Assembly: GCA_951406725.2 (NCBI GenBank)
Contig: OX597814.1
Span: forward strand, 92,318,001-92,382,000
Direction: 5' to 3'
Origin: Octopus vulgaris
Lineage: Eukaryota
DNA length: 64,000 nucleotides
In this document: piece after piece, positions 2,918 to 60,149 of the stretch
Layout of the letters: every line of letters begins with the position of its first letter
Position numbering within the stretch: position 1 is the stretch's first letter
Notes under the pieces: model-generated
Told to the model about the DNA's origin: nothing
Seen by the model: only the letters and a program-made list of their open reading frames with translations
Databases searched by the model: none
Translations under genes and position numbers: made by a program

Positions 2918-3483
2918 ATAAGAAATATTGAGTTTCTAAATCTCTCGTAGAGAGGTGTACGGTGGTGGAGCGATATAATGGTTGTATACTGTCAATCTAA
3001 CAAGAACGTGACAGTAGGGGGTACACCACCGTTATATAGCCCTAGGAGGCATCGAACGCCTCCTGACAGCTTCGACACATTTTATCCTGTGTCCTTATAT
3101 ACACATACGAAGGGGAGACAAACACCCCCAACCGCCGGAACTGCATCTAGGGACACCGTGTTTCAGGATCATTGTCCTTCATCGGCCTAGAGTAGCAGAC
3201 ACCGGTCAGCTGGCGATATCTGTCTCGACTTCGTATTTGTATATATCTATAGTCAGTGAAGTCTATTCACTGATTATCAAAATAAGAAATATTGAGTTTC
3301 TAAATCTCTCGTAGAGAGGTGTACGGTGGTGGAGCGATATAATGGTTGTATACTGTCAATCTAACAAGAACGTGACAGTGTCGAAGCTGTCAGGAGGCGT
3401 TCGATGCCTCCTAGGGCTATATAACGGTGGTGTACCCCCTACTGTCACGTTCTTGTTAGATTGACAGTATACAACCATTATAT
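2918..3483 (-). mobile_element. Non-autonomous Penelope-type pLTR / retrozyme-like element with a 364-nt period and an inverted terminal segment
   Basis: 2918-3015 is repeated directly at 3282-3379. 3378-3483 is the reverse complement of 2973-3078. (TA)n lies on both sides and a hammerhead motif lies inside. Confidence 0.8.
3146..3191 (-). ncRNA. Minimal type I hammerhead ribozyme motif (U4C core variant)
   Basis: UCUAGG-CCGAUGA-AGGA(CAAUGA)UCCU-GAA-ACAC G GUGU-C-CCUAGA: 6-bp stem I, 4-bp stem II, palindromic stem III, GUC cleavage triplet. Confidence 0.82.
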
Positions 3484-3660
3484 ATATATATATATATATA
3501 TATATATAACTTACGCCATAAGAATTTCGAGTCTTTGATAGACTTCAAAAAATTCGTTTTTAATCATAAAATCTAAGCAGGTAAAGCTATAATTTAAATA
3601 AGGTATAAATTTGGGGCTTATTTACTTCGCGAGCGAGAGTTAAAACCGAATGTGTATATA

Positions 3661-3884
3661 CTGAGCGTCCAATAATACTTTATTTGTTCCACGTCCTTGC
3701 GTTGTTGTGTTTTTTTTGTTTTCTTGTTTGGATTAACTATATATATATATATATATATATATATATATATATATATATATATATATATATATATATATAT
3801 ATAGTTAATCCAAACATGAAAACACAAAGAGAAAACACAACAACGCAGAGGACCTGGAACAAATATAGTATTATTGGACGCTCA
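3661..3884. repeat. Inverted repeat arms of about 78 bp flanking a (TA)n tract; part of a pLTR-like element extending to about 4020
   Basis: ctgagcgtccaataatact...tttggattaac (3661-3737) pairs with gttaatccaaac...agtattattggacgctcag (3804-3884). Confidence 0.85.
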
Positions 3885-3904
3885 GGAAGGAAGGAAGAAG
3901 GAAA

Positions 3905-3939
3905 GTTTAACGTTTCGAGCGGAGCTCTTCGTCAGAAAC
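3905..3939 (-). ncRNA. Minimal type I hammerhead ribozyme motif
   Basis: GUUU-CUGACGA-A-GAGC(UCC)GCUC-GAA-ACGU-U-AAAC. Stem III is reduced to the palindrome ACGU, so it can only form as a dimer. GUU triplet. Confidence 0.72.
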
Positions 3940-4744
3940 AAAAGAAAAAGAAAGATCCAGCGAAGGGAAGACGGAGGGAAAAAAATTGCCAACGGTACAC
4001 ACGCGGTCACATTTTGAATCAATATATATATATATATATATATATATATATATATATATATATATATACATATATATTTTCGATTAAGTAAACAGAAGAT
4101 AGAATTGATATACCTATTTATTTTGTATTACGATCGTTCCCTCTCATCCTGTGACTGTCCTTTATGAGTTGGATGTTGTGCATCATATTGTGTTGGATCA
4201 ATTTTGCCGTCTGGGTCACATCAGGTACATTCATAAATGAAGTGGTGTGTCACTAATGATCTTGCGTTTGGGCAGTCATATTGTTATTATTTGCCCACAA
4301 CCACTTTTAAACTGAAAGTGCACAGTAGAATATGAATCTCAATTATAAATTGTAATTTTAATTTACTTCTATTATATATTCTTTCAATCACGTGCAATTT
4401 CTTATCGAATCCTTTTTATAATTTCACTCGTACCTATAGTGTAATTTTCATATAAAGTTTTATGATTCAACAATTATTTATATACTTTTATCCATTACGG
4501 TCAATTTCCATTTTATCCTACTATAGACCGCTATTTACAAGTAGATGTCCAACTTATTCGTTTTTTCGGCTTCAGTAAAGTAACATAATATTCTATCTTT
4601 GGTATTCGGGTACTATTTCCCCACTGGGTGAATGTACACATGTATGTATGTAAGTATGTATGTATACATATATTAAATGCATATATAAAATATATATATA
4701 TGTACATATACTTTATTTAAAGCAGCAGAAAATTCAACAAAACC

Positions 4745-4780
4745 TGTTACTCTGAGTTTCACGTTCCCGTTCGTCGGACA
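4745..4780 (-). ncRNA. Minimal type I hammerhead ribozyme motif (U4C variant)
   Basis: UGU-CCGACGA-ACG(GGAA)CGU-GAA-ACUC A GAGU-A-ACA. Palindromic stem III, GUA triplet, set between microsatellites. Confidence 0.68.
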
Positions 4781-58009: not shown

Positions 58010-58216
58010 AACAACAAACAAGATGAGAACAAATATCCGTCAAATATAAATAGTGGAAATATAATTTTGTGTAAAATTATATATGCTAGCGTATATAGAA
58101 TTATATTTGTAGACATCTAAATATGTTTTTGTGGGTGTTATTTATTTATTACAATCAAAAAATAAGTATTCTCTATATGGTGTCGAGTTTAGTTGAAACT
58201 TTTTCAAATTAATTAT

Positions 58217-58594
58217 AGGCGTAGGAGTGGCTGTGTGGTAAGTAGCTTGCTTAACAACCACATGGTTCCGGGTTCAGTCCCACTACGTGGAACCTTGGGC
58301 AAGTGTCTTCTACTATAACCTCAGGCCGACCAAAGACTTGGTAGACGGAAACTGAAAGAATCCCGTCGTATGTATAAGTATGTGTTTGTGTATCTGTGTT
58401 TGTCCCCCAACATCGCTTGACAACCGATGCTGGTGTGTTTACGTCCCCATAACTTAGCGGTTCGGCAAAATGGACCGATAGAATAAACAATAGTCTTACA
58501 AAGAATAAGTCCTGGAGTTGATTTGCCCGACTAAAGGCGGTGCTCCAGCATGGCCACAGTCAAATGACTGAAACAAGTAAAAGAGTAAAGAGTA
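58217..58594 (+). mobile_element. SINE family A copy
   Basis: aggcgtaggagtggctgtgtggtaag...aacaagtaaaagagtaaagagtaa. Confidence 0.9.
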
Positions 58595-58756
58595 ACCATT
58601 ATAAAGTAGATATAAATCCTCATACGAAAATGAACGTCCGGATAATATTTGAATTAATGCTCGAAAATATGCTGGTTTTGAACCATTCTTTAAGCATTTT
58701 TACATAAAGCATTTACTATGATTGATACACATATCTCTCCATCGGTTTGTAAATAT

Positions 58757-58975
58757 AGCGAGCTGGCAGAACCGTTAGCACGCCGGGCGAAATGCTTCGC
58801 AGTATTTCGTCTGCCTTTACGTTTTGAGTTCAAATTCCGTAGAGGTCGACTTTACCTTTTATCATTTCGGTGGCGATAAATTAAATACCAGTTGCGTACT
58901 GGGTTCGATCTAATCGACTACCCCCACCCCCCACCCCGCTCCAAAATTTCGGGCCTTGTGCCTAGAATAGAAAAG
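58757..58975 (+). mobile_element. SINE family B copy
   Basis: gcgagctggcagaaccgttagcacgccgggcgaaatgc...gggccttgtgcctag. Confidence 0.85.
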
Positions 58976-59299
58976 TATATGACGAGCAAACAAACTTTCT
59001 TATGTTTATGCCTTGATAAGGCAAAAAGCATGAATAACCACTATGATTAAACTTCAGTAATTTCAGGTTCTTCCGTTATTTTCGGATTATTTTTGCCAGT
59101 TAATATATAAGAAACTTTTATGGCTGGATATTAATACGTAGGAAGTTTTAATATTCATATACATGCATTTCGATACCTGTGTGTTTGAGCGTGTGTTTGT
59201 ATGTGCATATACGTATGTATATGTATACATGTGTTGCGTGAGTATGTATATGTGTATTCATATATATATATATATATATATATATATATATATATATAT

Positions 59300-59595
59300 A
59301 TATATTTACTTATATTTCTCATATATTTTTATTGTATTTATTATATATATATATATACTTATATTTCTCATATATTTTTTTATTTTATTTATATATATAT
59401 ATATATTTACTTATATTTCTCATATAATTTTTATTTTATTTATTTTTTTATACATATATATATATATTTACTCATATTTCTCATATATTTTTTATTCTAT
59501 TTGTTTTTTATACATATATATATATATTTACTTATATTTCTCATATATTTTTTATTTCATTTATTTTTTATACATATATTTCTTACATATTTATA
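59300..59595. repeat. AT-rich minisatellite, about 5 copies of a 50-60 nt unit
   Basis: tacttatatttctcatatattttttatt..att.att.....atacatatatatatatatt repeated in tandem. Confidence 0.85.
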
Positions 59596-60149
59596 GAGAT
59601 GTTGTTTTATAGGTTTATTGCTTATATATTTTTTGCACATAATTTTTTCTGTATTCTACCTTCCACCCTGCATTTTCCCTGTGCGTATATAGACGTGTAT
59701 GTGGAATCTTTTGTGCGCGCGTGTGGATGTATGCGTGTGTGCGTGTATGTGCGTATATAGATATGTGCGTGTGTGCGTGCATGCGAGTACGTGCGTATAT
59801 AGACGTATTTTAATCAGTGTTTTTACACATTTTTCTGTATTTTTGCCTTTAGCCTCAGTGCGCGGGCGCGCATGTGTAGGTATGAATATGCACCTTACGC
59901 GAATACTATGAATCTTTTTTACCCCCTTATTTTTACTCCCTTCCCTCACTTAGCGGTCATTAAAATAGCTCTTTTGTCTTAATAACGGTCAATCACATAG
60001 TAATTTCCCTTTATATAACGGTCACTTTTCATAGCATTTTTCCGATGGCCGGATATGGCGACGTGGATTTTCACCTCGGCATCCGAAACTCGGAGTTTTA
60101 TCATGGCTACCGAATAATTGTCACATATTACATTTACAGATATATATAT

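Follow-up and report, generated by a model that had tools for sequence, protein, structure and literature searches.

Diverse hammerhead ribozyme families in the Octopus vulgaris genome, among them a tRNA-headed element, are likely inserted by Penelope-type proteins

The window analyzed in this study is a 64,000-nt stretch of the Octopus vulgaris genome (assembly GCA_951406725.2, contig OX597814.1, positions 92,318,001 to 92,382,000), which carries hammerhead ribozyme motifs at eleven sites. We found that these sites represent eleven families, of which two form the 3' ends of autonomous Penelope-like elements (PLEs), three are short, circularly permuted units and one has a tRNA-like head, and that all of them have likely been inserted by reverse transcriptase (RT)/endonuclease proteins of the Penelope type. 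Each family is named after the window coordinate of its site, with 3146, 3905, 4745, 22698, and 32444 located on the minus strand and 19343, 27165, 28920, 44780, 57964, and 60031 on the plus strand. Copies were gathered in eleven genome searches, one per site, with 40 candidates scored in each (out of 106 to 4,098) and 15 to 30 loci kept per family. Families, folds, unit lengths, the pairing rule of the insertion ends and the linkage between tRNA-like head and hammerhead were read directly from these copies.

The insertion signature points to PLE proteins as the enzymes. It was analyzed in seven families (3146, 22698, 28920, 44780, 57964, 4745, and 60031, thus not in 3905, 19343, 27165, and 32444), all of which show PLE-type insertion with two fixed 3' ends, delimiting a tail, and an inverted arm. 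Relative to the predicted cut, the 3' ends fall into two groups, at about 175 and 234 nt in the 3146 family, 127 and 185 nt in 22698, 138 and 190 nt in 28920, 29 and 80 nt in 44780, 60 and 95 nt in 57964, 42 and 108 nt in 4745, and 48-68 and 111 nt in 60031. With thresholds for short and long ends that we set from the end distributions, 80 of the 88 head-to-head insertions combine one short and one long end. This is the case for all insertions of 3146 (17/17), 4745 (11/11), 28920 (3/3), 44780 (3/3), and 60031 (3/3), for 38 of the 44 in 57964 and for five of the seven in 22698. Mixed ends also occur in four out of five insertions of a young autonomous PLE family of this genome. Mobilization by PLEs, as proposed in the initial annotation of the window, is thus supported by the two-ended signature of the seven families, but the 57964 family probably depends on enzymes other than the proposed Neptune type, and no sequence link between a mini-element and a specific autonomous PLE was found.

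At family level the hammerheads are real, although about half of the window copies are damaged. The motif or its remnant is present at all eleven annotated coordinates. Compared with the majority sequence of their family, the copies at 3146, 3905, and 28920 are intact and those at 57964, 27165, and 32444 nearly so. The 4745 copy has its stem I reduced to 3 bp, stems I and III are broken at 19343, the 5' strand of stem I is gone at 44780, the copy at 22698 is truncated and ends at the hammerhead core, and a 10-nt deletion has removed the core at 60031. A twelfth hammerhead at 26617 (minus strand), absent from the earlier list, is the other arm of the 27165 insertion. The fold is restored in the family majority sequences, in all eleven of which stem I comprises 4-7 pairs and stem III is palindromic. 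With the hammerhead positions fixed by eye beforehand, the stems I of the eleven majorities sum to 67 pairs, compared with a mean of 20.7 and a maximum of 43 in flank shuffles, and none of 5000 shuffles reached this value. The stems differ between families with their pairing kept, and among relatives of 3905 loop II is variable while its stem stays constant. No pair among the eleven hammerhead regions aligns at E ≤ 0.05, which agrees with the earlier view that each site belongs to a different dispersed family.

The motifs had been described as minimal hammerheads with a CYGANGA core, a palindromic stem III and (TA)n flanks, a description that needs amendment in several families. The standard core is found in nine of the eleven majorities, while 28920 has a U3-A8 core with a 2-bp stem II and 22698 has a C at position 9 (C9) in the 20 copies shown. 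The 3146 hammerhead has a canonical rather than a minimal geometry (6-bp stem I, 4-bp stem II), and the majorities of 27165 and 32444 carry a 1x1 mismatch at the base of stem II. The palindromic stem III holds across the majorities, with 4/4 to 12/12 intermolecular pairs and a lowest value of 4/6. (TA)n follows most 3' ends, the exceptions being 57964 (0 of 47 ends) and 19343 (1 of 21).

Single copies were counted in the window with a descriptor that accepts C3-G8 or U3-A8 cores, with 100 local dinucleotide shuffles of the window as controls. Of the seven matches, the three with a C3-G8 core (3185, 3935, and 4777) exceed the shuffles (mean 0.14, maximum 2), but the four with a U3-A8 core do not (mean 0.59, maximum 4), and this class alone is not above chance in the window. 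Only 28920 has family support among these four; the matches at 17583, 25829, and 62992 were taken as chance. In the entire assembly (2.8 Gb, 227 contigs), the pattern CYGAHGAR-N8-30-CGAAACGTH has 26,590 matches against 136 for a reversed control, and the matches listed belong mostly to the 3905 and 57964 families. A 600-kb sample of the 30 chromosome-scale contigs (sixty 10-kb stretches at round coordinates) contains 16 C3-G8 matches, compared with 0-3 in eight shuffles. Extrapolated from this sample, the genome likely holds around 70,000 intact-looking hammerheads, and the density in the window (3 per 64 kb, with 1.7 expected) is not unusual. When both arms of an insertion are counted, the sample contains 11 family anchors for 3905, five each for 57964 and 60031, two each for 28920 and 22698, one each for 44780 and 4745, and none for 3146, 19343, 27165, and 32444. 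The 57964 family extrapolates to roughly 20,000 matches genome-wide, and the 3146 motif has 296 exact genome matches. The collected locus sequence (1.79 Mb, biased to these families) yields 236 distinct matches in 53 clusters, 16 of which have at least two members; some of the clusters likely represent chance. The large and diverse hammerhead population tied to PLEs that had been proposed is supported, with tens of thousands of motifs genome-wide. Rfam reported nothing at gathering score in the window and no match to the 3146 motif at E ≤ 5; of 245 window matches at E ≤ 5, the 150 listed are all miRNA matches caused by microsatellites. Additional multi-copy hammerhead families outside the eleven, including a second U3-A8 family, were observed in the collected loci L198, L163, L363, L300, L213, L014, and L369.

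The 57964 family is composed of a tRNA-like head, an (AAT)n stretch and a hammerhead module. The window contains a headless two-armed copy (57871..58061, plus strand; inverted arm 57871-57949), with the hammerhead at 57964-58009 (plus strand) and a predicted cut after 58004. The head pattern has 152 exact genome matches. When 30 heads were chosen by this pattern alone, the module followed in 24; in other loci it lies behind 13 of 14 heads, at 12 places, and the 14th has a degenerate module. When 25 hammerheads were chosen without regard to the head, 15 had a head within 450 nt and the other ten kept 3'-ward parts only, as 5' truncations would. Of 27 tRNA sequences compared with the head, tRNA-Arg(TCG) of the same genome gives the best alignment (49/77 identity, z 7.7), closely followed by Ala and Thr; the head has an A-box match, and a B box was read by eye from the tRNA-Arg(TCG) alignment. 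TTTT occurs in two of 18 full copies, as expected for a unit without an internal terminator for RNA polymerase III (Pol III). Since an inverted 3' part lies directly upstream of 32 out of 57 heads and a same-strand 3' part upstream of only one, the unit is linear with a fixed start.

The tail of this family is shorter (about 35 nt) and (TA)n is not its target. Because tail and target differ, the family was likely moved by another PLE lineage than the (TA)n families, and probably not by the same Neptune enzymes. It is probable that we are dealing with a short interspersed element (SINE) that would ride Penelope enzymes rather than those of a long interspersed element (LINE). We lean, with modest confidence, towards a true tRNA-derived SINE with a PLE partner, in which a Pol III head would be joined to a PLE hammerhead/start-site module in some 20,000 copies. 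The end rule would then be the trace left in the genome by a PLE dimer that primes the two DNA ends at two staggered positions of the same RNA, the hammerhead of which stays uncut. The copies are PLE-type at their ends; no partner element of any kind turned up, and no LINE library was included in the search. Three tRNA-derived SINEs (OK, OR1, and OR2) have been known from octopus since the 1990s. A second, abundant tRNA-like SINE without a recognized hammerhead is found at 58217-58500, 32000-32200, and 18900-19300 of the window, and it often sits beside or inside hammerhead elements.

Three families (3146, 3905, and 27165) consist of short, non-coding head-to-tail units of 364, 219, and about 493 nt, respectively, with one hammerhead per unit, and are retrozymes as judged by their sequence organization. 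The 364-nt retrozyme is inserted at 2921..3478 (minus strand), with an inverted arm (3379-3478), a direct arm (2921-3378) of 1.26 units and (TA)n on both sides. Its hammerhead of canonical geometry lies at 3146-3191 (minus strand), with a predicted cut after 3152. All 30 loci of this family consist of 364-nt unit sequence in partial tandem or inverted form and have no common flank apart from widespread repeats; tandem dimers and a trimer were found as well. At polymorphic sites, segments within one insertion carry the same alleles in 84 of 90 comparisons, and opposite arms in 57 of 62, as against 63% between insertions. The unit folded as a circle is predicted to form a rod with the hammerhead at its tip (z = -10.1). 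Contigs from four sequencing runs, which we guess to be RNA, cover the 364-nt unit without joints or end information and were not used as evidence. In such contigs one base at window position 3156 is often missing, which would make stem III of the 364-nt family a perfect loopless palindrome and marks a second subfamily.

The 219-nt retrozyme is present as a monomer (3804..4022, minus strand) with a minimal hammerhead at about 3905-3939, an ACGU stem III and a predicted cut after 3909. A second copy of 78 nt (3661-3738, plus strand) stands tail-to-tail with it, and a clean head-to-tail trimer was found at locus L321. A possible parent of this unit is a longer relative (L295:900-1710 and L361), which resembles it in hammerhead and 3' end and continues upstream for at least 600 nt. 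The 3.1-kb repeat beside this relative in L295 is a CR1/L2-like LINE. The third retrozyme forms a two-armed insertion (26329..27394) with a hammerhead on each arm, one with a damaged core at 26617 (minus strand) and one with its core at 27172 (plus strand) and a predicted cut after 27221. In this family, 12 of 20 loci return on the same strand to their own 3' part, with periods mostly of 460-496 nt.

The 28920 and 22698 families are the 3' ends of autonomous PLEs, and the short circular-type units were found for three families only; the initial description of the hammerhead carriers as mini-elements is accordingly restricted. The 28920 hammerhead (28920-28958, plus strand; predicted cut after 28952) lies in the 3' region of a 5'-truncated Neptune-type PLE (27938..29140, plus strand) with an open reading frame (ORF) remnant at 27940-28809. 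The PLE ORF precedes the hammerhead by about 120 nt in all 20 loci. The 22698 site is the 3' end of a second autonomous PLE, encoding an RT followed by a C-terminal GIY-YIG endonuclease (22516..23020, minus strand). It has a direct arm at 22516-22735, truncated at the hammerhead core, and an inverted arm at 22907-23020, and its hammerhead follows the RT-GIY-YIG ORF at about 580 nt in loci L311-L314. Naiad was rejected as the parent because the endonuclease is C-terminal. In L312 and L314 (about 3500-6500, minus strand), the N-terminal region of a PLE of this family is long and rich in Asn; the two copies of this duplicated locus lie 31 kb apart. A third, decayed and interrupted Neptune-type PLE (34384..36750, plus strand) is kin to the young intact family mentioned above, and the match between them stops ahead of the hammerhead of that family. 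The young family has many near-identical 775-aa frames, a tandem period of 4271 nt and, read by eye, a U.U pair (1x1 mismatch) at the base of stem II of its hammerhead. In L446-L453 (on the window's contig, G000:C1, at 27.84-27.85 Mb, and on others), a 454-aa frame stands before the 775-aa RT-GIY-YIG frame, and the tail is 46 nt long; two frames are unusual for a PLE.

We classified PLEs as Neptune-type when the RT is followed by a C-terminal GIY-YIG with a CX2-5CxxC linker. The DD motif, CX4CxxC and YVG(S/E/Q)T align in all three PLEs (28920, 22698, and 34384), Pfam matches to the PLE proteins are below cut-off, and the partial proteins of the 22698 and 28920 families are only 22% identical. 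Neptune-type PLEs thus appear to be present in the window, as annotated, to judge by the CX4CxxC linker before GIY-YIG, which is associated with Neptune (Craig et al., 2021, PMC8557442). A small piece of another PLE endonuclease (44% identity) occurs at 63228-63362, and a GC-rich PLE-like RT fragment of another lineage, at 9214-9699 (minus strand) of L319, could represent a class of partners for families with targets other than (TA)n.

The remaining five families are 4745, 19343, 32444, 44780, and 60031. The 4745 site is a 5'-truncated copy (4706..4780, minus strand) with a short stem II (4-nt GGAA/GCAA loop) and a predicted cut after 4748. The 19343 site is a decayed copy (19316..19520, plus strand) of an old family with a stem II region of 78 nt, and the 32444 site is a two-armed copy (32202..32679, minus strand) of another old family with a 12-nt palindromic stem III. 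The 32444 family has a 36-nt end in common with the 27165 family. A 5'-truncated, decayed copy represents the 44780 family (44787..44879, plus strand), of which the majority folds well, and the coreless 60031 copy (59641..60145, plus strand) belongs to a family in which non-coding sequence extends upstream for at least 670 nt. A same-strand return was found in 0 of 20 loci for 4745, 1 of 20 for 19343, 0 of 20 for 44780, and 0 of 15 for 60031. The 32444 family shows it in five of 20 loci, three of them near 480-490 nt, which hints at a unit of about 480-490 nt.

Enzyme identity, cleavage, circles and Pol III transcription are parts of a mechanism that we infer from the anatomy of the copies and the published biochemistry of an Anolis PLE. 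A PLE protein would attach to the RNA close to the hammerhead and cleave a target that is AT-rich or (TA)n on both strands. Each DNA end would then prime cDNA inside the RNA, at two fixed start sites that lie downstream of the hammerhead and 35-65 nt from each other, and the two cDNAs would be joined head-to-head, giving one short and one long arm. The Anolis protein cuts and extends both strands, its cDNA starts at two internal sites that bound the tail, hammerhead cleavage is not needed for insertion in vitro, and the ribozyme cleaves only with the protein (Frangieh et al., 2024, PMC11167929). Because copies of the 364-, 219-, and 493-nt units exceed one unit, their template was likely a circle (formed by dimer-assisted self-cleavage and ligation) or a tandem transcript. 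The template of 57964 was likely an uncut linear Pol III transcript starting at the tRNA-like head, since full copies span the cut site and start at the head; its hammerhead would serve mainly as part of the module recognized by the PLE protein.

Several observations weigh against insertion of all eleven families by Penelope-type proteins or against parts of this mechanism. Both ends are short in six of the 44 two-armed insertions of 57964, and both are long in two of the seven of 22698. Six of the 30 heads chosen by pattern have no hammerhead within 520 nt (one module is cut before the core and five heads have none), and neither the Rfam tRNA model nor ARAGORN calls the head. The mini-elements have no sequence in common with the three autonomous PLE families examined beyond short, chance-level matches. 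Core sites are only slightly less variable than others, in copies that were picked by similarity. The 27165 and 32444 hammerheads, with their unpaired stem II base, and the 22698 hammerhead, with its C9, may cleave poorly or not at all, the fold of the 219-nt unit is no better than that of shuffles (z -0.4), and in a preprint on Xenopus cleavage failed for eight of nine retrozyme dimers (Li et al., 2026, bioRxiv 10.64898/2026.07.22.740005). In addition, families 4745, 19343, 32444, 44780, and 60031 could be truncated PLE ends as well as mini-elements.

The last point leads to the strongest alternative, namely that most families are debris of the 3' ends (with the pseudo-long terminal repeat, pLTR) of many autonomous PLE families, left by 5' truncation, with no independent mini-elements. 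We give this nearly as much credence as not. It holds for two of the eleven sites (22698 and 28920), most solitary minimal hammerheads have been interpreted in this way (Cervera and de la Peña, PMC4209133), and 60031, 44780, and a 3905 relative can be followed for 600-735 nt upstream with no recurrence of their own 3' end, in a genome where the 3' regions of autonomous families measure 120-580 nt. It leaves unexplained, however, the fixed periods of 364, 219, and 493 nt and the fixed tRNA-like 5' end. Moreover, partial Neptune queries against 1.5-kb flanks found no PLE protein match in the loci of 3146 (0/30), 3905 (0/25), 57964 (0/25), 19343 (0/20), 44780 (0/20), 60031 (0/15), and 4745 (0/20). 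Chance matches in an AT-rich genome, at the other extreme, are practically out of the question and refuted at family level: the shuffle-level U3-A8 single matches and the failure of about half of the window copies under a strict descriptor would fit them, but the family folds against their null, the reversed-pattern count and the C3-G8 excess in the 600-kb sample do not.

Two further alternatives concern the 57964 family only. A LINE-driven SINE whose hammerhead frees it from longer transcripts, like SMalpha of schistosomes, is unlikely, even though Schistosoma SINE-like elements combine a Pol III promoter with a hammerhead (PMC6765202), the 3' end of 57964 has a short AT-rich repeat, and the loci are rich in CR1/L2- and RTE-like LINEs. 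The copies retain 55-95 nt past the cut site together with the upstream promoter, which argues for an uncut template and weakens this explanation, as do the mixed ends of the two-armed insertions and the near absence of same-strand 3' parts upstream of the head. Less likely still, and largely refuted, is a composite in which a headless PLE mini-element was inserted into the (AAT)n tail of an ordinary tRNA-SINE. A microsatellite does lie between head and hammerhead, five of the 30 heads lack any module part downstream, and microsatellite targeting is known for PLEs (PMC8557442). Yet (AAT)n is on the 5' side of the module and not at the primed 3' end, after which (TA)n is never found, and the inverted arms, which start at the 3' end, continue past the module into the head. 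These arms and the frequent inverted 3' parts directly upstream of heads indicate that head and module were copied as one cDNA.

The octopus families appear to be uncatalogued but belong to the known world of PLE hammerheads and retrozymes, in an unusually large population. The metazoan PLE hammerheads of Cervera and de la Peña (2014, PMC4209133) are likewise type I, with palindromic positions 15.2-16.2, an extra nucleotide after A9, a long stem II, a U3-A8 variant and numerous families in each genome that are unrelated to one another; most of the motifs stand alone or form inverted pairs. The octopus differs by its C9 core in a young autonomous family, by the 1x1 mismatch at the stem II base in three families and by its far higher count (26,590 for one core type, against 2,000-9,000 per genome obtained with different methods); cephalopods are not named in the available text of that study. 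Non-LTR retrozymes (Cervera and de la Peña, 2020, PMC7229834; Li et al., 2026) have the same non-coding units (170-400 nt), one type I hammerhead in each, and the same head-to-tail dimers and trimers, and our 364-nt unit has the canonical 6+4 geometry and a predicted rod-like circle fold. The octopus units are mostly dispersed two-armed insertions with PLE tails instead of arrays, and those of 219 and 493 nt carry PLE-type minimal hammerheads, unlike non-LTR retrozymes. The main text of PMC7229834 does not contain octopus, squid or cephalopod, and Li et al. (2026) sampled no mollusc according to the text available.

Poseidon of Anolis carolinensis (PMC11167929) and the PLE tail (PMC8557442) correspond to our families in the two fixed ends past the hammerhead, the optional tail, the inverted 5'-truncated arm and the AT-rich targets, with tails of 30-40 nt compared with about 46-65 nt in the (TA)n families. 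What the octopus adds to Poseidon is a count of the one-short/one-long pairing, non-coding passengers included. The nearest precedent for the 57964 family is found in the schistosome elements SMalpha and Sjalpha (reviewed in PMC6765202; PMC8490949), which also have a Pol III-type promoter followed by a type I hammerhead. These are described as needing tandem copies, because cleavage parts the promoter from the unit, whereas single octopus copies keep the head, an uncut hammerhead and PLE-type ends; no PLE partner is named in the available text of either source. Among cephalopods, 235 Rfam hammerhead-1 loci are known from the giant squid (PMC6962438), and a term search of the main text of the octopus repeat annotation (PMC13282606) found no hammerhead, ribozyme or retrozyme; the library of that annotation includes 893 SINE families that are unclassified and recently active, and the families described here may already be among its entries without a label. 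The literature, as far as accessible and outside subscription journals, Repbase, and SINEBase, contains no cephalopod hammerhead catalog and no description of a PLE-driven SINE. The new parts are thus likely the tRNA-headed element with PLE-type ends and the near-strict pairing of short and long ends.

SINEs are grouped according to their partner LINE, and a tRNA-headed element moved by a PLE would, if true, represent a new class of SINE partner. An RNA of about 300 nt would then suffice to ask what PLE proteins recognize and whether the hammerhead is cut, with the young intact PLE family of this genome as the enzyme source for such tests. The end rule turns the in vitro result for one lizard element into a countable in vivo pattern.

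The window contains several other features. Pfam had no match for five window ORFs. We take 36884-37285 (without a Pfam match) and about 25700-25900 to be remnants of Tc1/mariner-like transposases, and the fragments at 8947-9462 and 9792-10292 (both minus strand, without a Pfam match) resemble a LINE endonuclease and ORF1. A complex C-rich satellite of 1.1 kb with units of 9-13 nt is located at 41938-43052, and long inverted-repeat pairs occur at 13577-15202 (291 nt), 48792-49629 (211 nt), and 60160-60460 (about 150 nt).

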